A model generated the notes under the pieces. It was not told where the DNA came from. It searched no databases and worked only from the letters and a program-made list of their open reading frames with translations. From a virus, in the IMG/VR virus record IMGVR_UViG_3300033182_000272, positions 1 through 39,426 of that record: a stretch of 39,426 nucleotides of DNA; one strand, written 5' to 3'. Made by a program: the position numbers and the translations under genes. Positions 2,181 through 39,426 of the stretch are shown piece after piece; the stretch's first letter is position 1; each line of letters opens with the position of its first letter.

Positions 2181-2951
2181 TCAGGAGAACAAAGCGTTCC
2201 AAGTGTTCCTGCCGACAACGCCATCGGCCTTCAGGCCACGATGGCGTTGGAAACCCTTTACTGCGGCAGCAGTCATGCGGCCATAAACGCCGTCAACACC
2301 GCCAGGATCATGGCCTTTGTCCCGCAGTTGGCGTTGCACAAGTTCGACAGCTTTGCCACGAGAACGACGGCGACGGCTCAACGGCTTTGCAGCAACCTGT
2401 TCTCCTAGCGCAGCGACGTAGGCAGCAACAGCTGCCCAGTCGACGCCAGAATCCCCAACCTTTGGATCTTTCGGCATAGTGCGGCCACGCTGCAACCAAG
2501 CATACAACTCGCTGCCAGGGCAGCTCGTAGACGCCTTGTCTCGATGGCCCTTAATCCAAAGTTTGTTGTCGTACCGATTCTGGATCTGATCCATAGTCCA
2601 ACGAATCGATTCCAGCGCCTTGTCGGGGACAGGGCCAGATCCCCAGCCCGTGTAGCAAATAGACTCGGTACGGCTGTTCCAGCCTCGGGTAGCGCCACCA
2701 ACAATGCCGCCGCCCCGCCCTTCGTAGACGACACCTTCTTCGTCGACAAGCCAGTTGTACGCAATAGCGTTCCAGCCACGGGTATCCATGTGGGTCCGTT
2801 CGAACGCCTTGAGTGCCTTGGGGCCGCTAGGACCGTTCTGCACGCCGCTGTGATGCAGAACAATGCCTACAACCCTGGACGGCTTCAAACGGGTGAACGG
2901 CTTTCGGGGCATGCGGGCGCCCCACCCTGAACGTGTAATAATCGGTCGCAT
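2181..2951 (-). CDS. N-acetylmuramoyl-L-alanine amidase (Amidase_2/PGRP type) with a C-terminal PG_binding_1 domain; endolysin
   Basis: Zn-ligand pattern VLHHSG ... GHRD ... TSCPG. The C-terminus GKAVELVQRQLRDKGHDPGGVDGVYGRMTAAAVKGFQRHRGLKADGVVGRNTW matches the peptidoglycan-binding repeat. Confidence 0.9.
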   Translation of the reverse strand: MRPIITRSGWGARMPRKPFTRLKPSRVVGIVLHHSGVQNGPSGPKALKAFERTHMDTRGWNAIAYNWLVDEEGVVYEGRGGGIVGGATRGWNSRTESICYTGWGSGPVPDKALESIRWTMDQIQNRYDNKLWIKGHRDKASTSCPGSELYAWLQRGRTMPKDPKVGDSGVDWAAVAAYVAALGEQVAAKPLSRRRRSRGKAVELVQRQLRDKGHDPGGVDGVYGRMTAAAVKGFQRHRGLKADGVVGRNTWNALFS

Positions 2952-20573: not shown

Positions 20574-20652
20574 GTGCCTCACGTTCATGGTCCTGTTGTG
20601 GCTGGTAGCCGTCGTGTACTTCCTCGTCGTGTCAAAGGATCTCGATGGCTGA
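20566..20652 (+). CDS. Candidate 28-aa membrane peptide
   Basis: MLECLTFMVLLWLVAVVYFLVVSKDLDG. It overlaps both neighbouring genes. Confidence 0.3.
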   Translation: MLECLTFMVLLWLVAVVYFLVVSKDLDG

Positions 20653-20914
20653 ACACCTGACCAACGCAGCTCAGGACTGGGTTGAACAGGCCCACTGCCG
20701 CATCGCCCGCATCAACCCCGACTACTTCTTCCCCGAACGGGGCGGCTCTGCACAGAAACAAGCAGAGAAGCTGTGTGCCCCCTGCACCGTCAAAGACGAA
20801 TGCCTGCGGTTTGCTCTCGACAACAACGAGTGGATGGGGATCTGGGGCGGCAAGTCAGGCAGGCAACGCCGCATCATCAAACAGCTAGAAGCCAAAGGGG
20901 TCGACTGGCAATGA
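20645..20914 (+). CDS. whiB: WhiB-family transcription factor ([4Fe-4S] Wbl protein)
   Basis: Cys pattern C...C-x2-C-x5-C (AHCRI...LCAPCTVKDEC), followed by GIWGG and a basic tail. Confidence 0.9.
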   Translation: MAEHLTNAAQDWVEQAHCRIARINPDYFFPERGGSAQKQAEKLCAPCTVKDECLRFALDNNEWMGIWGGKSGRQRRIIKQLEAKGVDWQ

Positions 20915-24601: not shown

Positions 24602-24760
24602 TTAGACAGGACTGACAGCCCGCCGCACCGCCACAGTCGTGGCAGCCAGCGTGCCGATAGCGGCAGCCAACTCGCCACCGTCAAGATCCAGCCCGATGAT
24701 GGCGGCTACAGCCACAATCAGGTTGGCGATCAACACAGGTTCAGTACGAATCTTGGACAT
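24602..24760 (-). CDS. Small membrane protein (52 aa); holin-like candidate
   Basis: MSKIRTEPVLIANLIVAVAAIIGLDLDGGELAAAIGTLAATTVAVRRAVSPV. GAAAGG RBS. Too short to appear in the ORF track. Confidence 0.5.
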   Translation of the reverse strand: MSKIRTEPVLIANLIVAVAAIIGLDLDGGELAAAIGTLAATTVAVRRAVSPV

Positions 24761-24769
24761 GGTTGCCTT

Positions 24770-27700
24770 TCAGCTAAAGAAGTTCGGGTTCTGACGGCGA
24801 AGCTGTTCAGCTTCCCGATCACGTTCAGTGACCCGACGGAACGCAATCGGACTAATCCAGTTCACAATGTTCTGCAGATAGCGCTCTTCAGTCTTCGGGT
24901 CTTCAGCAGTCGGAACCAGCCGCCGTGCCGTGCCAGCCACAGGCAAGAACGACTCGGTCCAACGCATCCACGACGACTCGGCAGTCAACGCCCCGTTGTC
25001 GTCCCGTTCAAAGATTCCTGCCTTAGTCAAAGGCTCAACAAACGGGCCAAGCGCAACCCGCCAAGCGTTCGGGACGACTTCTCGTCGTCCGTTGTAGCTG
25101 GACTGGAAGAACGTGTCGTAGTCAGCCAGATACTCAAACGGCACCTTCACCTGAGGTGAAGTCATCGTCAAGATCGTGCGAGGATTAAACGTCGTGTCGA
25201 TCTCCGTGAACGGCAAGTCAGGCACCATGAAGACACTGTCGCCGCCAATGCTGAACGGCAACTGAATATGGAACCGTTCCTCAATGAACTTCGGGATGTA
25301 ATCTTCCGTCTCAGCGTCCCGCTCGATCTCCCGCTTCAACGAAGCAGTACGGTTGTAGATCTTCGGGTTCGTCAACATCATCTCAAGCTGCAACGGCAAG
25401 TTCTTGCGAGTCCATGTGTAGAACGGAATCACACGGCGAAGAAAGCCACGTTCAAACGCCGACAAGTCGGCGTAATCGAAGTGATACTTGTACACGTCGC
25501 TGACAGCAGCCGAAATGTTAGAACCGTTCATCAAACGGTCCATCGCCAACGTGCCACGAAGATAGTTCTCAACTGTCGTCGTCGGCTTCCTCAAAGCCGA
25601 CGTTGCTGCGTTGTTCGGGTTGAACGGGTTGACTGCATCCAGCCCCCTGCCATTGCGGATACGAGCAATGTCCTGAAGCTCCGTAGTCTGACCGCCAGAC
25701 AACACGCCGTAACGAATCATCTCTTCCATGGCTTCTACAGCGCGCTGGCCCTCTTCAGTGCGAGACGCACGCTTAGCAGCAGGGCTGGCACGCAAAGCCA
25801 AGATCTGTTCCTTGATGCCTTCACCCTTTGCCATCGAATCCCTGACAGGCCCAAACAGCACATGGAAACGCCTGTAGCTGTCGAGATCGACGCCAGCCAA
25901 AGCATTGTTGAAAACGCCGCCCATAAAGTTGCGGCTGTGGAAACCAATCGAAGCGATAGCCCACGACTTGAACAAGTCAGTGATCCTGTCCCACGTCCTC
26001 AAGAAGTTGTTCTTGCCTCGCGCCCCCATGATCTCGTTGATCTGAGACAACCCAACAGCGATCTCTTCAGGAACCTGGCCCGTAGAACCAATCGGCACAT
26101 GCCCGTCCAGCACCTTCGTAAGCATGGTCAAACGCTCAGGAATTTCCATGCTGTTGAACTTGTCTTGAAGCACATCAATTTCTGACCTAGTAGCCCTGCG
26201 AAGAAGGTCAGCAGTAGCCTGCTCAGCCTGCGCCTGTAGACGCAACGACTCCGCTACAGAAGCAGCTTCTTGCTCTGCAGCAAAGGTCCGAGCCACGTCA
26301 GCGTCAATCTGAGCATCGAGCCGATCAGCAGCCCGATAGATCTCGTCGGCCCTGTTACGCAGGGCCAACTCTTCTTGCTGCAACGGGAACGCTTCATCGT
26401 CAGCGGCGCGACGTGTCGATTCCAGATCGCGTTCCAACTGCCGAACCTTGTTGCGGTTCGCAATGGCTTGGGCACGAGCTTGCTGCAGGTCGCCCTGCAT
26501 GTTGCGACCCACATCGCCCAGAGCTTCAACCTCTTCAACTTTGTCGCTCATCAACTCCCAACGACGCATGCGGGCGCCTTCAAGGAAGGTGTCGATTGTT
26601 CGCACAAATTCAGATTCAGAAACAATTTTCACCTGCTTAGCTCTGAACTCTGATGCAGTCTTCAATGCTCTGTTGATTTGTTGAGTGAACTCGAAAGTGT
26701 CGCTCAACAATAGTTCTTGCTTCTGAATGGCTTCAGCCATGTCTGCGAGCACGTCAAACTCGTTGCTGATTTCATCAGCAAAGTCAGCAAGATCAACGTC
26801 AGGGTCTAGACCCATGGCCTTTAGCTGGTTGTTGTACGCACGTCGCCAAGCACCCAACAGCTGACCTGCACGGCCTCGCCATTGATTCATGGATTTCACT
26901 AGCTCAGGCGTAACTTCAGTGGTGGAATGAACGTTCAGGTCTTTAATTCGATCAACCATGTAATCGAACTCGTCAACAGCAGCAATCAAACGGTCTTGCA
27001 GAGTGCCGATGTTGCTAGGGACCACAGTGTCTGCATCGTGGAACTGCTGAGCTACTAGCCGCATCTTGTTTACAACATCACGAAGGCTAGGCGTAACAAA
27101 CGCCTCCATGTCAGTAACGTCGCCTTGAAAGACTTCGTAAGTGTCTGGTCGGGGGATGCGTTGCTGATAGGCCGCCTCTGCTTCTTCAAGGCCAGAGAAG
27201 TCAAAGAACGATCGACGCCTTGACTGCTCAACAGTAGCCTTGTCGATAGAAGACTTGACCACGCTTTCAGATGTAGGCACTTCCAGTTGAGCAGGAGACA
27301 ACGGGATTACGGCCCAAGTTCCTTTGTCGTGGCGAATCGTGTACAGGATCGAGTCGTGCCCTTGGGCACGCAACTCAGCAACGAAATCAGCAGCGATGCG
27401 AGACTGCAACACGTCCATCTGTGCATCAGGCAAATCGTTGCGGAACCAAGTGCTGGTCAGCGGGTGAACAAAGTCGTCAAAGAAGCCGCCAGCATTGTCC
27501 AGAATTGCTTTTTCGTTGCTAATGAAGGCTTCCACAGGGATGGAGTCGTTGTACCTAATTCCGTCTTCGATGCCGTCACGAATTAGGCCGATAACTCTCA
27601 TGAACTGATCGTCATCAAGCCCTGTGCCGACTCGGAAGCCCCTGCTGGCGTAAACCCTGTTGGTAAAGTTTTCGGCATTGATAGTCCGAACAATGTCGTT

Positions 27701-30700
27701 GCCTTCTTGCGCACGACCCCTAAGAACACTGACTATCAGTTCTCGGGAACCACTGATGTCAGTATCATCGAGCAAGTCGGACAAAACACCGAGAACCCGA
27801 GTATCACCTACCTGATCAAACAAGTCATCTACAAACTTGTAATGAGCATCACGGCTAGCAGGCCCAGCAAACTCAAACGCTGCCTCAAGATACGACTTAG
27901 GTCGACCCACAATCGTGCCGTCAGGCAACTTGCCAGTCATCAACTGCCAAATCTCGTCGGCATACGGAATGCCGACCGCCCGCAAATCTTCCAACCCGTA
28001 ATGCCCGTTCCTGAAAGCAGAATCAAGCACTTCGCCATGCAGCAAAGCTAAACCAGAACCCCGAGTTCTTTCGTTCCACGCCTGACTGTCAGGAACTGGC
28101 CTACCCAAATGGATGTCTTCAAGCGTGCCGCCAAACACCGCAGGGTTGTCTGAACGCACCATAAACCCGACAAGCCTGGCAGGATCGTGATCAGAAAACC
28201 CAGTTGAATACTGAACGTTCTGAGCAAGGTGCATGCCCAGATAAACGTCGATTTCGTGTACGTTTCTCTCGCCTGGCTGCGGCTTGTAGTTCAGATCAAT
28301 AGCTTCACGGTTCGCGCCTGTCCCGTGGAACCAAATCATTTGGTTGTCGCCGTAAGTCAAATAGCCCTTGCTGCTCGCAGCGAAACGCTCAATCGCCAAC
28401 TTGATTTCTTCCCGAAACTCAGGCGGGAACTCGTCGTCAAGCAACTCAACGATTTCGTCAAGCTCTTGCTGCAACTCGTCACGCTTAGCCTGAGCATCAA
28501 CAATGCGAGCACGAAGAGGCGACTGCATCGCCTCGTCAGCCGTAGCCACAACCTTCTTCTGAGCCTGAACAATCTCGTCCAAACTACGCTTCACGCCAAG
28601 AACCTTGTCGCGCACGGCACGAGCTTCTGTCCTGCCAATCGCCCGCTTCGGGACATTCGGCAAGTTCTCCAGCAAAGGCAACAACTCACGGTTCAAAGCA
28701 TCTAGGAACACAGCCTCCTCTTCAGGAGCCAGCCGATAAATCTGCTCCAACAACCGAGAAGCCCGAGCAGCCCTTGCCGAAGCCGCAACACCATTCCTCA
28801 CCAGATTTTCAGCCTGATCTCGCAACGCCTGCTGAGTAGCAACGTCGCCCACAGCCAAGAAGTAATCGGCTTCAGCCTGAGCAATCACGTCGTTCAACTG
28901 ACGAATCTCGGCGTTGATAACGTCAATCCGCTCCAAGAACTCAGGCGCTACTTCCAAACCGTCATCAACGGCAGAACCAATCTGCTCAATCTCCCTGTAA
29001 AGAAGATTGCGGCGACGGCCCAACTCGGCCAAGCCCTCCTTGATGCGTTCATAATTAAGTTCGTACCGTCGGGCAGCAGTTTCGGATTCCCGAGCAGCCA
29101 TCCTGATGCGGTCCAAAGCATCGTCAGTGCGCTGCTTCAAAGCATCCAACGCCTGCCGAGCCTGTGTAGCAGCCTCAAGGTAGTAATCGCCAGCGTCCCT
29201 GAACGGCTGCCCTGGGGTTGCCTCCAGCTTGACATCCCACAGCTCTGCCTGCACACGCCTAGCTTCTTCAGCCTCAGCCGCAGCCTTCTTGGCTGCGGCG
29301 TCGGCATCATCAGCTGCCTTAACCGCAGCGTCTCGCACCGCTTCCTGCTTAGCGTTCATCGCATGCAGATCCTGCAAGCGACGCTCAATGTTTCGTGCAG
29401 CTTTACTGGCCGCATACGCAGCTTCGTCACGAACCTCGCGCTCCAGAACAACGCCCATTTCACGCAGGTAGTTCTCAGCAAACTTGCCTTCTACCCGTCG
29501 AGAAAGAATGTTGATGTGCTGAGGCATCGCACTAAACAAGTCTTCATCGAACCACTTGTAGACCTGTTCGCCCTGCTCAGCCATCACATCTTCAAGATGC
29601 TGGAAAGCCTGCTCACGAGGCGTCAAGCCCTTCGAATGCTCGCTCTGCTTGACCAGAGTCAGACCCATAAAGTCTTCGCCTGGAACAATCTTGGCGCGCT
29701 TCTCAAACGTCTCAAGGTACGTCTGATCTTTCGAGTAGTTCGTTCGGGCCTTGCCGTGCCACACAGAAATCTCTGAAGAAGCAATAGAAGGCTGCCAACC
29801 CTCACGGAACCGAATCCACTCTGGAACTTCGGCGTCTACATCAAACTTGTTGATGTGGACTGCCTTGTTAGCTTCCAAACGAACAGACTCAGTAAAGTCT
29901 CTGAGTTCGTTCCACAAGTCTTCTGGGAAACCTGCAGGAGGGGCGTCGGCGCCCAAAGCGTCGTAAGCCTGCTTGCCGCTGATGTTCTGATCCAGCAGCT
30001 TGCGAGACAGATTGGCCCACTGCTTTTCCAGAGTGTTCTGAAGGTTACGGGCAACGCCTCGGGCAATGTTCGTTGCGTCCATCGCATGGAACGCATCGAC
30101 CCACAACTTGTCGCTCGTAGAAGGATCGCGCAACAGCTGCTTCAAAACCTTACGGTCACCGCCAAGAATGCCGCCCAGAGCGCTTCTGCGAAGCTTCTGG
30201 GCAATCGTGTTAACAGCAAACCGTGGCGTGAGCCGTAGCAGCCTGTTGTCGTGCGACAGCACCTGCAGGTAGAAAGGCTTGGCAGGGCCAGGGGTCAGAC
30301 GGCCCACTGTCTTCCCGAAAGGAACACGGAACTGCAAACCGCCCGTGAACGCTTCTCCTGCTTTTAGAGTGCCAAGTTCACGAGCAGAAGCGCTGATCCT
30401 GGCCAAGTCGTCGGCAGAAGCGGCTCGTGCGCCGCTGTTGAACACTCGTCGAGCCAACGGTGCATCGCCAGCCTGAATAGCTGCCCTGACCAGACCCATT
30501 GTGCCTTGCTTGGCCAACGGCAACGTGCCCAAAGTTAGCCAAGTAAACGGGTCGAAAACTACGTCGCCTACAAACCCAGCGATGTTGTCCAACGGCTTAA
30601 CGCCGAACAGTTCAACTTCGCCCAACCCTGGCGCCCACTCTTGGATAACGTCACCAAACCCGATGCCATCTCGGGTTTGGGTGTACAGCTCAGTAAACGA

Positions 30701-31183
30701 AAACTGCTGATCGGGATCAACAAGATCCCCGATCTCTTTGAGGGTTGAAACGACAGCTGCACGAGGCGTATCAATAGCCTTCAGCAAGCCCATTGCAGGC
30801 TGGACTAGATCGCCCCAACCAAACCCGTCGTCGCCGTCGTACTTGGAATCACCAAGCCAAGCATCAACAATGTTCTGAGTGATCTCAGGCGTCAGCGGGC
30901 TGCTGCCAGGCTGCCCTAGCTCTGGGAGTGTCGTTGAAGGCGGAGGAATGTCAAAGGCAGCGTCACGCTGCTTTTGAGCGATCTCGGCAAAGTCAATGTC
31001 TCCGACATACGATCCTGGGTCGTCAGGGTCGAACGTCGACAGCGTCGGGCTTTCTTCAATGATGCTTTGAACGCGTTCTTCGTCAACGCCATACCTGTTG
31101 GCGATTTCAGCAATGGCTTTGTCGAACTCGGTTAAGGGTTCATCGCTGCTGAGAAGATCAAACTCGTTATCTCCTTCAGCCAT
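24770..31183 (-). CDS. Giant virion-associated (internal/ejection-type) protein, 2137 aa
   Basis: One uninterrupted ORF in the gp16-equivalent position after two smaller internal-protein-like genes. It has long coiled-coil stretches. Confidence 0.75.
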   Translation of the reverse strand: MAEGDNEFDLLSSDEPLTEFDKAIAEIANRYGVDEERVQSIIEESPTLSTFDPDDPGSYVGDIDFAEIAQKQRDAAFDIPPPSTTLPELGQPGSSPLTPEITQNIVDAWLGDSKYDGDDGFGWGDLVQPAMGLLKAIDTPRAAVVSTLKEIGDLVDPDQQFSFTELYTQTRDGIGFGDVIQEWAPGLGEVELFGVKPLDNIAGFVGDVVFDPFTWLTLGTLPLAKQGTMGLVRAAIQAGDAPLARRVFNSGARAASADDLARISASARELGTLKAGEAFTGGLQFRVPFGKTVGRLTPGPAKPFYLQVLSHDNRLLRLTPRFAVNTIAQKLRRSALGGILGGDRKVLKQLLRDPSTSDKLWVDAFHAMDATNIARGVARNLQNTLEKQWANLSRKLLDQNISGKQAYDALGADAPPAGFPEDLWNELRDFTESVRLEANKAVHINKFDVDAEVPEWIRFREGWQPSIASSEISVWHGKARTNYSKDQTYLETFEKRAKIVPGEDFMGLTLVKQSEHSKGLTPREQAFQHLEDVMAEQGEQVYKWFDEDLFSAMPQHINILSRRVEGKFAENYLREMGVVLEREVRDEAAYAASKAARNIERRLQDLHAMNAKQEAVRDAAVKAADDADAAAKKAAAEAEEARRVQAELWDVKLEATPGQPFRDAGDYYLEAATQARQALDALKQRTDDALDRIRMAARESETAARRYELNYERIKEGLAELGRRRNLLYREIEQIGSAVDDGLEVAPEFLERIDVINAEIRQLNDVIAQAEADYFLAVGDVATQQALRDQAENLVRNGVAASARAARASRLLEQIYRLAPEEEAVFLDALNRELLPLLENLPNVPKRAIGRTEARAVRDKVLGVKRSLDEIVQAQKKVVATADEAMQSPLRARIVDAQAKRDELQQELDEIVELLDDEFPPEFREEIKLAIERFAASSKGYLTYGDNQMIWFHGTGANREAIDLNYKPQPGERNVHEIDVYLGMHLAQNVQYSTGFSDHDPARLVGFMVRSDNPAVFGGTLEDIHLGRPVPDSQAWNERTRGSGLALLHGEVLDSAFRNGHYGLEDLRAVGIPYADEIWQLMTGKLPDGTIVGRPKSYLEAAFEFAGPASRDAHYKFVDDLFDQVGDTRVLGVLSDLLDDTDISGSRELIVSVLRGRAQEGNDIVRTINAENFTNRVYASRGFRVGTGLDDDQFMRVIGLIRDGIEDGIRYNDSIPVEAFISNEKAILDNAGGFFDDFVHPLTSTWFRNDLPDAQMDVLQSRIAADFVAELRAQGHDSILYTIRHDKGTWAVIPLSPAQLEVPTSESVVKSSIDKATVEQSRRRSFFDFSGLEEAEAAYQQRIPRPDTYEVFQGDVTDMEAFVTPSLRDVVNKMRLVAQQFHDADTVVPSNIGTLQDRLIAAVDEFDYMVDRIKDLNVHSTTEVTPELVKSMNQWRGRAGQLLGAWRRAYNNQLKAMGLDPDVDLADFADEISNEFDVLADMAEAIQKQELLLSDTFEFTQQINRALKTASEFRAKQVKIVSESEFVRTIDTFLEGARMRRWELMSDKVEEVEALGDVGRNMQGDLQQARAQAIANRNKVRQLERDLESTRRAADDEAFPLQQEELALRNRADEIYRAADRLDAQIDADVARTFAAEQEAASVAESLRLQAQAEQATADLLRRATRSEIDVLQDKFNSMEIPERLTMLTKVLDGHVPIGSTGQVPEEIAVGLSQINEIMGARGKNNFLRTWDRITDLFKSWAIASIGFHSRNFMGGVFNNALAGVDLDSYRRFHVLFGPVRDSMAKGEGIKEQILALRASPAAKRASRTEEGQRAVEAMEEMIRYGVLSGGQTTELQDIARIRNGRGLDAVNPFNPNNAATSALRKPTTTVENYLRGTLAMDRLMNGSNISAAVSDVYKYHFDYADLSAFERGFLRRVIPFYTWTRKNLPLQLEMMLTNPKIYNRTASLKREIERDAETEDYIPKFIEERFHIQLPFSIGGDSVFMVPDLPFTEIDTTFNPRTILTMTSPQVKVPFEYLADYDTFFQSSYNGRREVVPNAWRVALGPFVEPLTKAGIFERDDNGALTAESSWMRWTESFLPVAGTARRLVPTAEDPKTEERYLQNIVNWISPIAFRRVTERDREAEQLRRQNPNFFS

Positions 31184-31185
31184 GT

Positions 31186-32583
31186 TTACTCCGAGTTGGT
31201 TTCTGCTGCCGCTGCTGCCGCTTCCTGAGCTTGCATCAACATGATGATGTCTTCAGCAAGATCAGAGCTGAGGTTAACATCGCCCTTGATGACGCCGTCA
31301 AGAATTGATCCAACAGCGTCTGGCCCGAGAGTGCCGAGCACCTGACGAACGAGCGCATCATCAGCCGCATCTTCTGCAGCTTCACGAGACGCAGTAAGCC
31401 CGCCCGCATCCATGCCAGAACGGAACGAAACAAGGTCGTCCAAACGGCCCGTTGCCAAACCAACACGGATCTCATCAATGCCTACGCCAGCCCGCAACGC
31501 AAGCCTGACTAGATCAGCGTCGTCAGCGTAGATGCCCCCCTTGCTCCCGCCGACCTTCTTCGTCGGCGGGTTCAAAGCCAGCTCCAACAACTGCTGACGA
31601 GCAGTCTCAGACAACTGGAACTCAGAAGCAGAACGATCCGCAGCACGCTGCGCCACAATCGAAGCAACCAAATTGTCCAACTCGCTACGAGAACCAGCAG
31701 CCTGCGTTTCCACAAGCCCACTCTGACGGCCCAAGGCATCCCGAGAAATCTGGCTCAAACGAGCGTTCAAGTCAGCTTCAATATCGGAAGACTCAGCAGC
31801 CAAATCCCGAGCCGTCTGGCCTTCTTCCTCTAGCGTCCTACGAATGTTGCCAGAAGTAACGTTCGCCGTACCCAAACGACGCAACGCCTCTTCTTGCCCA
31901 GCAGCAATACTGCCAGCAGTCCTGCCAGCGCTAGTCGAAATCAAACTCTGCACATCAGCAGACCGAGCTTCCAGATCCTTAGACAACCCAGAAATGGACT
32001 CGATTGCAGCCAAACGGCTGCGATCAATCTCGTCCCGAGCCTGAGCGTTGCGACGATCTAGCTCGTCCTGCATGATCTGGTACTGCTCTTCCAGCTGCTG
32101 CATGCCCAAAGACAAAGTCTGGTTAATTGCATTCTGCTGCATCTGTAGCTTCGCAGTGTCGACTACAGTCCGCCCCTCGGTAGCGGGGCGAATCAAGTCA
32201 TTCAAAGCCTCTAGACCTTGCGCTCTGGCGATAGCGTCAGCAATCGCCTGATTGCGATTGTCTTCGATTGAGCCGATGCCTTCAACTAGGCCCGCAGCCA
32301 TAATGCCAGCCCCGAATTGCTCTCCATCGAAAACGGCACGGGCTTCAGGAGAAACCTCAGGGTACGGTTCACGAAGCCCAAAGAACGTGTTTGCGCTTTC
32401 GTCTGTGGTGTTTAAAACCTCTTCAATAGTCGGGCCACCCATGCCTTCGAAACCAAGCTCAATATCAAGAATGGACTCAAGCCAATCAGGACGGTCGCCT
32501 GGGCGCATGTTAGACATAGGGTCTTGAACAAACGTCCAAGCTTCGCCCGCCCCCTCTTTAATACTTTCCCACCAGTTGCTCAT
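31186..32583 (-). CDS. Internal virion protein-like coiled-coil protein (465 aa)
   Basis: Position and composition (Q/E/A/R-rich heptad-like segments). ATGA overlap with the upstream gene. Confidence 0.55.
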   Translation of the reverse strand: MSNWWESIKEGAGEAWTFVQDPMSNMRPGDRPDWLESILDIELGFEGMGGPTIEEVLNTTDESANTFFGLREPYPEVSPEARAVFDGEQFGAGIMAAGLVEGIGSIEDNRNQAIADAIARAQGLEALNDLIRPATEGRTVVDTAKLQMQQNAINQTLSLGMQQLEEQYQIMQDELDRRNAQARDEIDRSRLAAIESISGLSKDLEARSADVQSLISTSAGRTAGSIAAGQEEALRRLGTANVTSGNIRRTLEEEGQTARDLAAESSDIEADLNARLSQISRDALGRQSGLVETQAAGSRSELDNLVASIVAQRAADRSASEFQLSETARQQLLELALNPPTKKVGGSKGGIYADDADLVRLALRAGVGIDEIRVGLATGRLDDLVSFRSGMDAGGLTASREAAEDAADDALVRQVLGTLGPDAVGSILDGVIKGDVNLSSDLAEDIIMLMQAQEAAAAAAETNSE

Positions 32584-33014
32584 CAGGCAATTCCCTGCAA
32601 CATCGCAGCGATCGCAGAACGACGCTGCGCCTCCTGCAGATCAATGTTCGCCAAACTCAAAACCCGATTGACATCGAACGACGAAAGCTGACTAAACAAA
32701 TCATCTCGACGACGACCAAAGTCCATGTCCTGCGTAGCCTGCGCCTGAAACCGACCAATCTCAAAATCGCCAATCCCACGGTTGTAAATCCCCGACCGTA
32801 GAAGCCCACGACCCGAATACGCCCCAGGCAACTGCTGACGCGCACGATCCAACTGGCGAGCAAGAGTACGACGAGCCGCAGCCTGCTCCATACCCAAACG
32901 CCGCTGAGCAGCAGCGTTCCGAATCACATTCTGCTGGTACTCGTAATCAGTAGCAGAGCGACGGCCCTCAAAGGCCGTCGCCTCAGCAGCAGGAAGAGTG
33001 TATTGAATCGCCAT
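32583..33014 (-). CDS. Internal virion protein-like small protein (143 aa)
   Basis: AGGAGG RBS. Its position precedes the 465-aa and 2137-aa genes. Confidence 0.55.
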   Translation of the reverse strand: MAIQYTLPAAEATAFEGRRSATDYEYQQNVIRNAAAQRRLGMEQAAARRTLARQLDRARQQLPGAYSGRGLLRSGIYNRGIGDFEIGRFQAQATQDMDFGRRRDDLFSQLSSFDVNRVLSLANIDLQEAQRRSAIAAMLQGIA

Positions 33015-33420: not shown

Positions 33421-33567
33421 CTACTCGGACGGTTCCTCAGGTTGTGCGGCAGACAACTCAAGCTGTTGCTGCAATTTCTGGTTCTGGATAGCCAAAACGC
33501 AGATCTCAAACTCCTTCGGGAACCGAGACTGCATAAGGGAAATTACTTCTTCGTGTGATACGTTCAT
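33421..33567 (-). CDS. Mini-protein paralogue B (48 aa)
   Basis: [52 protein letters not shown] overlap with the fibre gene stop. Confidence 0.5.
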
Positions 33568-35591
33568 GATGCCGACTCTAACGCAGCAATGCGAGCCTCA
33601 TGGCGCTTCAGCAAGTTGACCAAATGCGGCACGAGACGGTCGTACTGCACGCCCTCGGGTTCAGTCAGGTCTGCTACGTCAGGCTCAAGCTTCTGGTCGT
33701 CTTCGTCGTACTGCCATTCGTAATCGTCAGGCACGCCGTATTGCACAAGCCGAGGGTCAACTTCTGCAACTTCTTCAGCGATGAAACCCCAATAGCCCCA
33801 CGAATCTGGGTCGTGTTCACAAAGTGACCGATACCAAACAGGTCGCAGGCCAAGGATGGCGTCGGCGTAGCTATCCTCCATCGTTTCAACATCGGTCTTG
33901 TATTTGATAGAAGACACCGTTGAGCGGTAGAAGTACCCGCCAGATGAAATGTGCATGTTCGCACCCGAGCCAGTCGTGTTGGCGTAAGTGCCGTCAGATT
34001 CAATAGTGCCTGTCGGAAACTTGACGTTGCCGCTAGAATAGAAAATCGCCGTGTCAGAAAGACCTGCACGAGACGTGCCCGTCTTCACAACGACGGTGTA
34101 ACCCGTCAAAAGTCCAAAAGCGGGATTGGTGCCCCCCGAATTCGTGTAGCCCAACTCAGCGTAGTTAGTGTATCCAGAGTCTTGGATGGTCACTGCACGG
34201 TTCTGAGAAACAACCTGAAGGTTGCCAGCAGGCGACGTGGTGCCGATACCGACATTGCCCGTGTCGCCTCGGATCACCATGCGTTCGGTGTAAGTGCTGC
34301 CGTTCGCCGCAAAGATCGTTACACGGTTTTGATCTGTGCCGATGCCGTAAGCCGCAGAGCCAGCCTCGTACAGCCTGACTTGGCGTGAACCGTCAGCAGG
34401 GGAACCAAATGACAGATCGCCGCTGATGTCCAAGCTCGTCAACGTGCCGACCGAGGTCAACGACGAAGCCGTCACCCCAGAAGCCAACGTCGAACCAGTC
34501 AAATCCGCAGCAGCAGTCGTGCCCGCTGGCCCCTGCGGGCCTTGCGGGCCAGTAGCACCAGTCGCGCCAGCAGGACCAGTCGGCCCGTCCCTCAGAACAA
34601 AGTCGAACACGGCGGCACTGGAGGTGCCGCTGTTGGTAACAGACGCCGTACCCGAGTTCGTAACAGAAGTGGTAGTGCCGACCGCAATCGTCGCAGCCGC
34701 ACCATCCGCACCATCAGCACCAGCAGCGCCAGTCGCTCCCGTAGGGCCTTGGGGGCCTGTCGCACCCTGCGGACCCGTAGCGCCTGTAGCCCCAGTATCG
34801 CCTTGCGGTCCTTGAGCACCTGTAGCGCCAGTCGCACCTTGCGGACCAGTCGGTCCGTCACGCAACACAAAGTCGAACGTGGCTGCGCTAGAACTGCCAC
34901 TGTTCGTAACCGACGCAGTACCCGAGTTGGCAACAGAAGTAGTTGTTCCAACAGCGATTGTTGCTGCTGCGCCGTCAGCGCCGTCAGCGCCATCGGCGCC
35001 TGCAGCGCCTGTGGCTCCCTGAACACCCTGCGGGCCTTGAGCGCCCTGAGGACCAGTTGGTCCCGTGTCGCCAGTATCGCCTTGAGGCCCCTGCGGGCCA
35101 GTCGGGCCAGCGGGGCCAGTTGCGCCAGTAGGGCCAGTGGGGCCATCACGCAGAACAAAATCAAAGACGGCAGCGCCCGAAGTGCCGCTGTTAGTAACGC
35201 TCGCAGTTCCAGAGTTATTAACAGAAGTCGTCGTCCCAACAGCAATGGTTGCAGCTGCGCCCGTAGGGCCAGTAGCACCCGTGTCGCCCTGCGGTCCTGT
35301 CGCACCAGTAGCTCCCGTCGGTCCTGTCGCTCCCTGCGTGCCAGTCGCACCCTTCTGCGCCAACGTTTGCCAGTTCGTGTTAGAGGCGCCTACAGACGGC
35401 AGGGCGTTGCCCGTGTTGGAACTGGTGCGAGACACGAACGTGTTGCCGTTGCCGTCGGCAACGACATCACCAATGTCGTAGGTGGTCGACGAGCTGTAGG
35501 TGCCAACATAGTCAGGCCCGCCTGAAATGTTGACCTGAACTGAAGGCTCGTCAGAGTTCAGGTTGTACTGACGGTCTACCCAGTTACCCAT
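33564..35591 (-). CDS. Collagen-like tail fibre with a C-terminal S74-type intramolecular chaperone domain
   Basis: Long Gly-X-Y runs. The C-terminus reads [10 protein letters not shown]...[16 protein letters not shown]...[27 protein letters not shown] place the start at ATG 35591. The tracked start at 35597 is TTG. Confidence 0.85.
34521..35351 (-). repeat. Three tandem modules (Gly-X-Y run plus [38 protein letters not shown]) inside the fibre gene
   Basis: The conserved blocks start at aa 115, 211 and 301, giving periods of 96 and 90 aa. Confidence 0.85.
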
Positions 35592-35808
35592 TTTCAACGT
35601 GCCATTCTAGGTGGTCGTCTTGACGACGACGGACTTCCTTAACGTCGTCCCGAACCTCACCAATCCGTTCCGAAATGTCATCCAGCCGCCGCAGATTAGC
35701 GGCGTGCTGGTCAGTGTTCTCCCGCCGAAATTTGGCAGCAAACACGGCAAACAGGCCCGTTACCAGAGCTGCTCCTGTGCCGCCAAAGATGGCTGCCCAC
35801 TCAGCCAT
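35584..35808 (-). CDS. Small protein with an N-terminal TM helix and a charged coiled-coil C-terminus (74 aa)
   Basis: [23 protein letters not shown], followed by [38 protein letters not shown]. It lies between the two fibre genes. Confidence 0.55.
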
Positions 35809-35809
35809 G

Positions 35810-36973
35810 TCATGCTGCCTCGACAGCTTCCATGCGGTCCCGCAAGTCTTGGATTGCCAACGTCATCAACGACATCCACGCCGTCTGGTCAACACCCATC
35901 AGGATCTGGTCGCCGTTTGCGTCAGTGCCATGGCTAGCAAGGAACTCCGAAATGGTTTCCATGTCATCAGCAATCGGGCCGATCTCGGGATACCCAGGAG
36001 CAGTAATACGGTTCCACATCTTTGGAACAACAGAATCAATCATGTCGACAGTCAAATAACTACCGAGATCCGTTGAAATGTTTTCCTTTTCGGCAGCAAC
36101 TGAAGAGTTCTTGACCAAAGCAGACACGCCATAGGCGGTAATCATGTGGGCGGCGGTGCTGCTGCCAGTTGGGAACTGCGAACCTGAGTCAAACGACTTG
36201 AACGTTCCTGTGGCTTTGGTAACAATGTCGTTGCCAGTTACGGCGCCACCAATTTGGAACTGCTTGACGCCGTCAATCCAGAACGAAAACTCGTCGTCTG
36301 TGTCGTCGAACCTGATCTGATCGTTTTCGTTGCCAAACTCGATCTTCTTCTGGCTGCTGACATTCAACAAGCCGTTCACAGCCAAATCGTTAGGGAACGT
36401 GTAGTTGCCTGTGCCGAACGTGCCAGCATCAATCTTGCTGGCGTTCAAATCGGGAATGTCGGCAGCTTCCAAATCTGCCGCAAGCGTCAACGTAACGTTT
36501 GTGTCACCATCAATGCTGACGCTGCCCGTCATGTCACCGTCAACCGTCAAAGTGCGAGCAGTCAACCACTTAGAAGCAGTAGCGGCATTACCAGTCGTAG
36601 ACGACGAAGTCGTAGCGTTGCCGTTGAACGTAGCTGCCGAAACGTCAACAATGACCGTGCTGCTAGCGTTAAGAATGTCGCCTTTGAACGTGGCATCGGA
36701 ACCGTTGGTTCCGTTGTCCAACACAACGCTGGTGCCGTTGCTGGCAACGATCTGGCCCGTAATGTCAGCGTCAACGTCCAAGTTGCCGTTAACAGTCAAC
36801 GTGTTAGACACAATCAGACTGTTGATCGTCTGTGTGCCAGTAATTGCCTGAGAACCGCTGGTCCACACAACGTTGTTGTTGATGTAGTCGACCAGCGAAT
36901 CAAAGTTGGCGTTGACTTCAGCTGCGACCGCATCGGACGCAGCGACGAACGTATTGGGTACTGATGCAGTCAT
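35810..36973 (-). CDS. Tail fibre/spike protein (387 aa) with an S74-like C-terminal chaperone segment
   Basis: The N-terminus NTFVAASDAVAAEVNANFDSLVDYINNN is typical of fibres. The C-terminus reads SSVAAEKENIST...GVDQTAWMSLMTLAIQDLRDRMEAVE. Confidence 0.7.
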   Translation of the reverse strand: MTASVPNTFVAASDAVAAEVNANFDSLVDYINNNVVWTSGSQAITGTQTINSLIVSNTLTVNGNLDVDADITGQIVASNGTSVVLDNGTNGSDATFKGDILNASSTVIVDVSAATFNGNATTSSSTTGNAATASKWLTARTLTVDGDMTGSVSIDGDTNVTLTLAADLEAADIPDLNASKIDAGTFGTGNYTFPNDLAVNGLLNVSSQKKIEFGNENDQIRFDDTDDEFSFWIDGVKQFQIGGAVTGNDIVTKATGTFKSFDSGSQFPTGSSTAAHMITAYGVSALVKNSSVAAEKENISTDLGSYLTVDMIDSVVPKMWNRITAPGYPEIGPIADDMETISEFLASHGTDANGDQILMGVDQTAWMSLMTLAIQDLRDRMEAVEAA

Positions 36974-38750: not shown

Positions 38751-39426
38751 TCACTCCCATGCAAAGCGAGGATCCATCAGCGGATACATGTTGCGGTTGT
38801 AGTCGCCGCCCATTGTCACGCTAATAGCAGGCGAAGGGTCGTCGTAGAACTTGACTAGTTCTTGCAGACGCAAATCAGCCAGATCAGCGTAGTACAGAGC
38901 CGTCTGTGGCTCGTCCTGCTGGGCGTAGGCCCTGCCGAGCGCCCAGTTCAGAATTGGGCTGTCGAACTCTGCAGGCATGTCCGAAACTTGATCGCCAGGA
39001 TCAACAGCCGCAACCCAATCCTTGGGCTTCTTGTAACCACGAATTACAAAGGTATCCGTCGAGTTACCAGGCGCAGGGTCAAGCACTAGCTCGCCGTTGT
39101 TCCAAACCGACCAGTAGCTAGGGCTGCCTGAAGTGTCGCTATCTCGTGACCTGTAACGGTCACGGGTAGCAATGTCTTGCCATCGCAGATCCCACGAAGG
39201 TCCACGAACTTGGCGAATCTCAGCGATTTGCTCGCCACCGTTTTCAATCGAAGCAAACGTGTAGTTGCTTTGCCCGCTAACACCAGTAAACGTCCAGTCG
39301 TACTGAAAGAACGGCCATTCCTGGCGGCGAGTTTGTGCCCGAGTAGCTCCATCACGAACCCACTCGTCCACAAGCGTGTTCGGGAGGTCCGTGGCGTCCA
39401 AGTCCAGCGTCAGTCGAATCAGTTCA
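38751..39426 (-). CDS. Tail tubular protein A (T7 gp11)-like protein; the 5' end runs off the window and continues at 141-167
   Basis: It follows the capsid gene on the circular map. The size is about 238 aa with the GTG start. It has a W-T-F segment (QYDWTFTG). The tracked TTG start at 39401 has no SD. Confidence 0.55.
   Translation of the reverse strand, partial: ELIRLTLDLDATDLPNTLVDEWVRDGATRAQTRRQEWPFFQYDWTFTGVSGQSNYTFASIENGGEQIAEIRQVRGPSWDLRWQDIATRDRYRSRDSDTSGSPSYWSVWNNGELVLDPAPGNSTDTFVIRGYKKPKDWVAAVDPGDQVSDMPAEFDSPILNWALGRAYAQQDEPQTALYYADLADLRLQELVKFYDDPSPAISVTMGGDYNRNMYPLMDPRFAWE
39286..39426. repeat. Right copy of the exact 141-bp terminal duplication
   Basis: Identical to 1-141. Confidence 0.95.

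Follow-up and report, generated by a model that had tools for sequence, protein, structure and literature searches.

A predicted ejection protein of 2137 residues with a divergent ART-PolyVal-like domain in the genome of a probable actinobacterial podovirus

What does the giant gene of the virus genome IMGVR_UViG_3300033182_000272 encode? The window analysed here is the whole 39,426-nucleotide (nt) stretch of this IMG/VR record. A preliminary description made from its letters had pointed to an open reading frame (ORF) of 2137 amino acids (aa) at 24770–31183, taking up 16% of the genome, with a centre low in guanine and cytosine (GC) and a non-coiled island reminiscent of ADP-ribosyltransferase (ART)-like effector domains. 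The ORF was borne out, on the minus strand with an ATG start (6414 of 39,426 nt, 16.3%). We think it probable that its product combines the structural role of an ejection protein with an ART-PolyVal-like effector domain. The gene was divided into the following parts:

24770..31183, minus strand: giant gene, 2137 aa, predicted internal (ejection) virion protein, ATG start, from the ORF list and translation
29399..30811, minus strand: N-terminal conserved domain, aa 125–595, common to the whole wider family of proteins of 1.7–2.8 thousand aa by blastp and hmmsearch against remote members
28376..29398, minus strand: linker 1, aa 596–936, with a fraction of Ala, Glu, Arg, Gln, Leu and Lys of 0.52–0.74, poor in Pro and Gly, of low conservation
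27281..28375, minus strand: island, aa 937–1301, characterized with AlphaFold2 (AF2) models, Foldseek against BFVD and PDB, and hhalign against ART-PolyVal
26087..27280, minus strand: linker 2, aa 1302–1699, partly coiled-coil-like, identity to distant homologues 0.09–0.43
24773..26086, minus strand: C-terminal conserved domain, aa 1700–2137, the best conserved and family-defining part

The whole giant protein matched nothing significantly in Pfam, PHROGs or NCBIfam. A GDSL lipase match (E = 0.055) was taken as chance, and sequence searches of the PDB with the protein, an island profile and a full-length profile returned only weak matches to designed or coiled-coil proteins. Eighteen metagenomic homologues were found, with query coverage of 29–100%; 15 of the 18 covered 98–100% of the protein at 35–96% identity, and no Pfam domain was detected in any of them. 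Their alignment resolved three conserved blocks: aa ~125–595, aa ~937–1064 together with ~1230–1301 (the island), and aa ~1700–2137. More distant giant proteins of 1.2–2.8 thousand aa shared the N- and C-terminal domains. The C-terminal domain was common to P0019–P0039 and to MW202803 and MW202795, the only GenBank phage records that matched the giant protein, and the sole family match of the N-terminal domain was to phrog_36598, weak and unannotated. As judged from sequence, the giant proteins (1.2–2.8 thousand aa) are an unannotated family belonging to no Pfam, NCBIfam or annotated PHROG family, and the family centre holds an ART-like domain in most members found. Ala, Glu, Arg, Gln, Leu and Lys abound in both linkers and Pro and Gly are scarce, a composition suggestive of coiled coil; linker 1 is presumed to form an alpha-helical coiled coil. 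A transmembrane scan found no segment in the giant protein or its neighbours.

The non-coiled region that the preliminary description had placed at aa ~940–1300 proved to be real, and it is one of the three conserved blocks. Its parts and predicted catalytic positions are:

27992..28375, minus strand: island N-half, aa 937–1064, strands 1–4 with WFH953G, LGMH985LA and N1013-P1014, then a conserved helix RGxGLxxLH
27407..27991, minus strand: helical insert, aa 1065–1259, all-helical, with a predicted local distance difference test score (pLDDT) >90 in the model of the window's own island, variable in length and sequence
27281..27406, minus strand: island C-half, aa 1260–1301, a helix, then the strand 5–6 hairpin G-H-D1277-S-I-L-Y1281 ... 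TWAVIPL
28325..28327, minus strand: codon of H953, predicted catalytic His at the end of strand 1, from conservation and hhalign
28229..28231, minus strand: codon of H985, in strand 2, where canonical ART-PolyVal has Tyr, from conservation and hhalign
27353..27355, minus strand: codon of D1277, predicted catalytic Asp at the start of strand 5, invariant and aligned by hhalign

The motif quoted in that description corresponds to H953-G954, H985 and G1275-x-D1277-S-I-x-Y1281. Residues H953, G954, H985, D1277 and Y1281 were invariant in 19 of 19 family members, which share 35–96% whole-protein identity, and the surrounding residues varied freely. N1013-P1014 was nearly invariant (N1013 in 18 of 19). 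Across 14 diverse island domains, D1277 and Y1281 were kept in all 14, H985 in 13 and H953 in 12. The helical insert was the least conserved part of the island and the lowest in GC. Its length ranged from ~70 aa in P0038 through ~200 aa in the window protein to ~570 aa in P0012 and P0015. An extra segment of ~375 aa (~aa 1084–1460) was observed inside the insert of the last two, so the insert appears to be a site tolerant of further insertions.

The proposed resemblance of the island to ART-like domains could be carried beyond the level of a motif. The virion RNA polymerase (vRNAP) of Roseovarius Plymouth podovirus 1 (RPP1) is the prototype ART-PolyVal named by Iyer et al. 2017 (PMC5512222). 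As a positive control it matched the Pfam ART-PolyVal family (PF18760) at aa 1023–1096 with E = 9.8e-9. The ART-PolyVal alignment used here comprised six sequences only, namely the Pfam-confirmed RPP1 vRNAP and five relatives found by tblastn in phage records. Against this alignment, hhalign matched the N-half of the island with E = 4.7e-5 (62 columns) and the C-half, as a second collinear alignment, with E = 2.3e-3. With the helical insert excised the match reached E = 5e-8 (probability 95%, 95 columns), against E = 0.31 for the reversed alignment and E = 0.014 for the best of 30 column shuffles. H953 was paired with the His of 'YHGT', H985 with the Tyr of 'G-x-Y-F-T' and D1277 with the Asp of 'GYDG'. 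In the models, H953 lies at the end of strand 1, H985 in strand 2 and D1277 immediately before strand 5, and these positions correspond to the H, Y and D reported at strands 1, 2 and 5 of polyvalent-protein ARTs (PMC5512222).

The fold was consistent with the profile match. A second AF2 model was computed for the compact homologue P0038 (aa 828–1025) from a 14-sequence alignment that included the window's island. It reached a pLDDT of 89.8 and a predicted template modelling score of 0.85, with the topology beta1, alpha, beta2, alpha, beta3, beta4, helices, beta5, beta6. Foldseek with this model gave nine hits at E ≤ 1e-3 in BFVD, the top one an 'ART-PolyVal-like domain-containing protein' (E = 1.8e-5). 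Many further BFVD matches were named ART-PolyVal or 'PolyVal ADP-ribosyltransferase', and others were a Microbacterium phage MuF fusion and gp26 (1495 aa) of the cyanopodovirus Pf-WMP3. The only notable match in the PDB was 9k3a_B (E = 1.3e-3, probability 0.99). KptA/Tpt1 structures were also among the PDB matches, at E ~0.6–1.3 and probability 0.12–0.16 only; these were non-significant and were not used as evidence.

Model and profile together support the view that the island is a divergent ART-PolyVal-like domain, split by a ~200-aa helical insert between strands 4 and 5. With ART-PolyVal (PF18760) and Tox-ART-HYD2 it shares the motif order hhHG(T/S), G-x-(Y/H)-h-(T/A/S) with a helix, h-x-h-x-x-x-NP, a helix with G-(Y/H/F)-D-(G/S)-h-h-h, and a final strand, including the His in strand 1 and the Asp in strand 5. 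Like them, it is found within large virion proteins encoded by late genes and within a MuF fusion. It differs in being sub-threshold in Pfam, in having His for the strand-2 Tyr and in carrying an insert of 70 to ~570 aa between strands 4 and 5. Additionally, it lies in the middle of a coiled-coil-rich predicted ejection protein rather than in a multi-enzyme polyvalent protein, and the predicted host is Gram-positive. Polyvalent proteins carry two to fifteen effector-type domains in one virion- or conjugation-associated polypeptide (Iyer et al. 2017). In the giant protein one such domain could be recognised, and a relative of the island occurs in the MuF fusion protein P0037.

An exhaustive HMMER search with the island profile returned 17 hits among 1.84 billion representative proteins, or 16 without the repeat protein P0031, which was judged a compositional artefact. 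Except for P0031 and P0037, all were giant phage proteins that had these N- and C-terminal domains too. P0037 (1003 aa, metagenomic) combined a MuF domain (HPRCRC motif; PF04233, E = 4e-5), the island domain at aa 528–802 and a C-terminal zincin-like HEVGH motif. Such a MuF fusion is a classic architecture of injected phage effectors (PMC5512222), and P0037 appears to be a polyvalent-type effector protein of another phage lineage. Within the giant family, every one of the 18 homologues, down to 35% identity, had the island, collinear and at an unchanged position; beyond that range it occurred in a degenerate form. A Pfam scan for alternative cargo in the island-less members P0019, P0021, P0023 and P0026 found nothing; on closer look, P0019, like P0020, contained a degenerate island.

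The PDB match connects the island with a solved capsid-core assembly. Entry 9k3a_B is the 1717-aa gp27 of the Anabaena cyanopodophage A-4L (A4), whose gp26 (1114 aa) forms chain A of 9K3A. According to cryo-electron microscopy (cryo-EM) of A-4L, gp26 and gp27, at five copies each, make up the outer layer of a pentameric pre-ejectosome within the capsid (PMC12002296); in its main text, that paper mentions neither ADP-ribosylation nor an ART-like domain. Residues 1420–1610 of gp27 (NC_024358, 6117–11270, minus strand) read LYHGT ... GSGTYFS ... helical stretch ... LVGVDAL ... TLVINP, apparently an ART-PolyVal-like motif set with an insert at the same place as in the island. The island profile gave no significant hhalign match to whole A-4L gp26, gp27 or gp28. 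With the gp27 segment 1406–1625 the similarity was at motif level only (E = 0.015 with the ART profile, a marginal value from a single sequence), and the island fold in the P0038 model matched gp27 with a template modelling (TM) score of 0.42, at the domain level only.

A second similarity concerned gp26. A profile of diverse C-terminal domains aligned with gp26 residues 718–830 (hhalign E = 2.8e-4, 102 columns, probability 41%), against E ≥ 0.2 for other A-4L proteins and E ≥ 0.033 for shuffled gp26, and this stretch aligns with the most conserved part of the window's C-terminal domain. For the N-terminal domain, none of the A-4L proteins showed similarity. The giant protein thus has a likeness to portions of gp26 as well as gp27, the two outer pre-ejectosome proteins of A-4L, the link to gp26 being no more than suggestive. 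In both phages these are giant late-gene proteins of a podovirus of ~40 kb. The two parts lie in separate proteins in A-4L, with the ART-like domain near the C-terminus of gp27, whereas they lie in one protein here, and gp27 keeps the canonical Tyr where the window's island has His. Elsewhere the A-4L proteins are without detectable sequence similarity to the giant protein. The A-4L host is a Gram-negative-type cyanobacterium, and A-4L gp28 has lytic transglycosylase and M23 domains, of which no counterpart was found in this phage.

We place the giant protein among ejection proteins because of its gene position in the late virion module of a podovirus (SU10 adaptor, portal and conserved gene order), the gp27 match and the weak similarity of its C-terminal domain to gp26. 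The preliminary description had suggested an injected effector rather than a purely structural protein. That choice was a false one: an effector-type domain is indeed found, on a protein of the ejection type by gene position and by its likeness to gp27 and gp26. We infer that the protein is present in the virion and ejected into the host, and that the domain is catalytically active on a target there. The conserved N- and C-terminal domains and the long helical linkers would form a structural scaffold, packed into the capsid core and pushed out through the tail upon infection, and the embedded ART-like domain would be delivered into the cell together with the phage DNA. With a predicted active site of H953 (strand 1), H985 (strand 2) and D1277 (strand 5), the domain would most likely modify a host macromolecule at an early stage of infection with the use of NAD+; T4 Alt acts in this way, and the same has been proposed for the ARTs of phage polyvalent proteins. 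ART fusions of N4-like vRNAPs and of MuF proteins, and T4 Alt itself, are the analogies for an injected ART (PMC5512222, PMC9503650).

Several observations weigh against this reading. The AF2 model of the window's own island was good in the helical insert but reached a pLDDT of only 35–63 in the beta core, and a Foldseek search of the PDB with it gave nothing better than E = 1. Because of this weak core, the fold assignment rests on P0038, a homologue of 24% identity, for which the Foldseek TM-scores were moderate (0.33–0.52). The giant protein had no PF18760 hit even at E ≤ 1; this family matched 2 of the 14 island domains, with a best E of 0.033 that is sub-threshold, but was nonetheless the sole Pfam family matched by more than one of them. 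No significant ART match for the window protein was found in Pfam, PHROG, NCBIfam or PDB sequences. The catalytic Tyr of strand 2 is replaced by His (H985) in 19 of 19 members, giving a non-canonical site. The remote members P0019 (aa ~930–1145), P0020 (aa ~900–1110), P0036 and P0039 keep the island and its Asp but have lost one or both His: at these predicted catalytic positions Y occurs in P0036 and A and R occur in P0039, and both His are missing from P0019 and P0020. The domain can therefore persist without both. Finally, the homologous domain of A-4L is an ordered structural part of the pre-ejectosome.

The island could instead be a catalytically dead ART-derived fold, retained solely for its structural part in the capsid-core (pre-ejectosome) assembly, for example in packing, DNA anchoring or contacts between proteins. 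A purely structural role stays plausible because of the Tyr-to-His replacement, the loss of His in remote clades and the ordered structural role of the domain in gp27, the best solved match, for which no enzymatic role is mentioned; the missed Pfam threshold points the same way. His at the strand-2 position is, however, compatible with active enzymes of the ART superfamily, such as those of the Tpt1/KptA type. The invariance of H953, H985 and D1277, together with G954 and Y1281, in 19 of 19 members amid freely varying surroundings argues that the domain is active in this clade. The same domain is also fused to MuF in P0037 beside the HEVGH motif, a typical context of injected effectors (PMC5512222). 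We consider a dead fold possible, if unlikely.

We favour the structural ejection protein with an ART-PolyVal-like effector domain. A more specific form of it holds that in actinobacterial podoviruses a gp27-like and a gp26-like part were fused into one giant ejection protein, which delivers, along with the DNA, an active His-His-Asp ART from its centre that ADP-ribosylates a host target, possibly a nucleic-acid end or RNA polymerase instead of a usual toxin substrate. This form is rather doubtful. If it were true, A-4L gp27 and its cyanophage relatives would carry an overlooked ART.

The gene also raises the question of whether its centre was acquired from elsewhere. The segment 26550–28300 had a GC content of 50.8%, against 55.2% in both in-gene flanks and 57.4% in the whole window, and was the lowest-GC of all 1750-nt intervals (mean 57.5%, standard deviation (SD) 2.8; ~2.4 SD below the mean). 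The computed profile is not flat, and the dip noticed in the preliminary description is the minimum of the genome. The contrast given there, 42–50% against the high 50s, was overstated: 60-nt lines averaged 50.9% in the segment (range 40–57%) and 55.1% in the flanks (range 42–67%). GC was lowest in poorly conserved stretches (49.8% at aa 1086–1225, 49.4% at aa 1301–1545), with the minimum of the gene in linker 2 (45–47% at aa 1451–1550), and the conserved core of the island had 53–55%, the same as the flanks. Along the gene, GC at third codon positions correlated with conservation (rho 0.49, p 0.001). The late module as a whole was lower in GC than the early module, and the giant gene had 54.0% overall. 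Comparison with the P0002 gene (on the relative L013) delimited one further feature:

26384..28483, minus strand: central cassette, aa ~901–1600, defined by nucleotide and synonymous divergence from the P0002 gene and coinciding with the low-GC segment

In aa 1–900 and 1601–2137 the two genes were 93–100% identical in protein and 95–98% in DNA, and 3–9% of the identical residues had a different codon. In aa 901–1600, protein identity was 43–88%, DNA identity 56–87%, and 20–52% of the identical residues had a different codon. Synonymous codon differences were thus 4–10 times those of the flanks. Since synonymous divergence is higher, the cassette has a different history and not merely a faster protein evolution. 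Against P0001 the divergent patch was shorter (aa 1101–1200). The GC content of the cassette was 51.1%, versus 55% in the rest of the gene, and that of the P0002 allele was also low (50.5%); distant relatives had no GC dip in the giant gene. These data indicate that the ART-like domain and the linker behind it, which together make up the central ~2 kb, were probably exchanged between related phages by recombination, and such an exchange would explain both the lower GC and the mosaic divergence.

The preliminary description had suggested a horizontally acquired insert, and in its strongest form this would be a foreign toxin cassette, recently inserted from an unrelated source into an ejection-protein gene. 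The genome-wide GC minimum, the excess of synonymous divergence from the P0002 gene and the missing dip in more distant relatives would fit such an event, which we nevertheless regard as improbable. All 18 homologues, even at 35% identity, have the island, collinear and in one and the same position; being present in the whole family, the island is not an inserted foreign domain but ancestral. Its conserved core has the GC of the flanks, and it is the variable insert and the linker that account for the dip. Outside the giant phage-protein family the exhaustive search met the domain hardly at all, and the data fit an exchange of alleles among related phages. What stands of the suggested insert is the separate history of the central ~2 kb, by exchange among homologous genes of related phages.

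The gene position on which the ejection-protein assignment partly rests was read from the rest of the genome. Nucleotides 1–141 of the window are identical to nucleotides 39286–39426, so the window is a complete circular assembly of ~39.3 kb, or ends in a terminal repeat, with ~39,285 bp of unique genome. In order, the minus strand encodes the large terminase, an SU10/P22-type portal, an Amidase_2 + PG_binding_1 lysin, a scaffold and the major capsid protein. Across the circular junction it encodes an SU10-type adaptor, a 589-aa virion protein, two fibres (one collagen-like), proteins of 143 and 465 aa, and the giant protein, whose gene is the last of the late structural operon. The order from adaptor to giant gene was kept in metagenomic relatives of 37–40 kb (L001, L003, L013, L014). 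Relevant neighbouring genes are:

38751..39401, minus strand: SU10-type head-to-tail adaptor (Pfam PF24175, E = 4.2e-19)
31186..32583, minus strand: 465-aa protein, candidate second ejection protein, directly upstream of the giant gene and syntenic in all relatives
32583..33014, minus strand: 143-aa protein, candidate third ejection protein, upstream of the 465-aa gene and syntenic in all relatives
20645–20914, plus strand: WhiB-family transcription factor gene (PF02467, E = 3e-18), 93% identical to the WhiB of the relative L003

Library scans gave no family match for the 465-aa protein, and a weak, sub-threshold DUF7934 match (E = 4e-4) for the 143-aa protein; neither was similar to A-4L proteins. 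The major capsid protein was closest to those of Mx8, Brucella podoviruses and uncultured 'Podoviridae sp.'. The plus-strand module of the relatives also contained DnaB, AEP primase, a PDDEXK nuclease and RusA. The SU10 adaptor and the SU10/P22 portal mark the phage as a podovirus, and because of the WhiB gene its host is probably an actinobacterium.

Great length and long helical segments would also suit a tape-measure, tail-fibre or SMC-like protein, and annotations point in these directions: the MW202803 homologue, at the same gene position, is annotated as 'chromosome segregation', and A-4L gp26 and gp27 are 'tail fiber' and 'tail protein' in GenBank. We hold such an identity to be very improbable. 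Siphovirus tape-measure genes lie between tail-chaperone and distal-tail genes of long-tailed phages, whereas the giant gene ends a podoviral virion module, and no major tail, tail-tube or tail-chaperone match was found among the ten largest late-module proteins scanned. Collagen-like fibre genes are present separately at 33564–36973, a Pfam scan of the giant protein found no SMC or ATPase motif, and A-4L gp26 and gp27 are capsid-core proteins by cryo-EM despite their annotation (PMC12002296). The product of the gene at 33564–35597 (minus strand) is a tail fibre of 677 aa that has collagen-like repeats and matched PHROG tail fibres many times and strongly; the gene's GC content at second codon positions was unusually high (0.61).

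Few virion components are as poorly understood as the ejection proteins of short-tailed phages, and we know of almost nothing reported on them in phages of Gram-positive hosts. As in T7, where gp14, gp15 and gp16 fill this role, the largest gene follows two smaller ones at the end of the virion module, and packing in the capsid core followed by ejection is presumed. T7 gp16 has 1318 aa, against 2137 aa here. A Pfam scan of the giant protein found no lytic transglycosylase domain, and there was no detectable homology to gp16; moreover, the fibre genes precede the three candidate ejection genes in this phage and do not follow them. T4 Alt, a head-packaged ART that is delivered with the DNA and modifies host proteins early, serves as a functional model (PMC5512222, PMC9503650). 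It belongs to the R-S-E (Alt/VIP2) clade and is a separate small protein of a myovirus, with no sequence or motif relationship to the island.

ART-PolyVal domains have been known in virion proteins since 2017 (PMC5512222). What is new here is an apparent ART-PolyVal-like subfamily, divergent and undetected by Pfam, with a predicted His-His-Asp site and a large insert; the probable central position of such a domain in giant ejection proteins that form an unannotated family and belong to probable actinobacterial podoviruses; and the kinship with a domain of the solved A-4L gp27, along with the mosaic exchange of a cassette. If the domain is active, a structural DNA-delivery protein would clearly double as an enzyme that is injected and modifies the host, in a setting other than the N4-like and MuF ones proposed before, and the non-canonical site could indicate a different substrate. 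The match to gp27 provides an immediate structural hypothesis for that protein in PDB 9K3A, and the central cassette offers a small, tractable example of module exchange inside one gene.

Further observations concerned other genes of the phage. The Amidase_2 + PG_binding_1 lysin gene (2181–2951, minus strand) lies between the portal and scaffold genes, within the head module, and its product could be virion-associated; in the relative L001 a PG_binding_1 protein has another position, behind the fibre-region genes. A 52-aa ORF (24602–24760, minus strand) that lies immediately downstream of the giant gene is strongly hydrophobic at residues 4–33. An ORF of 52 aa is present at this place in L003, L013 and L014 too, and the product may be a holin-like or membrane protein.

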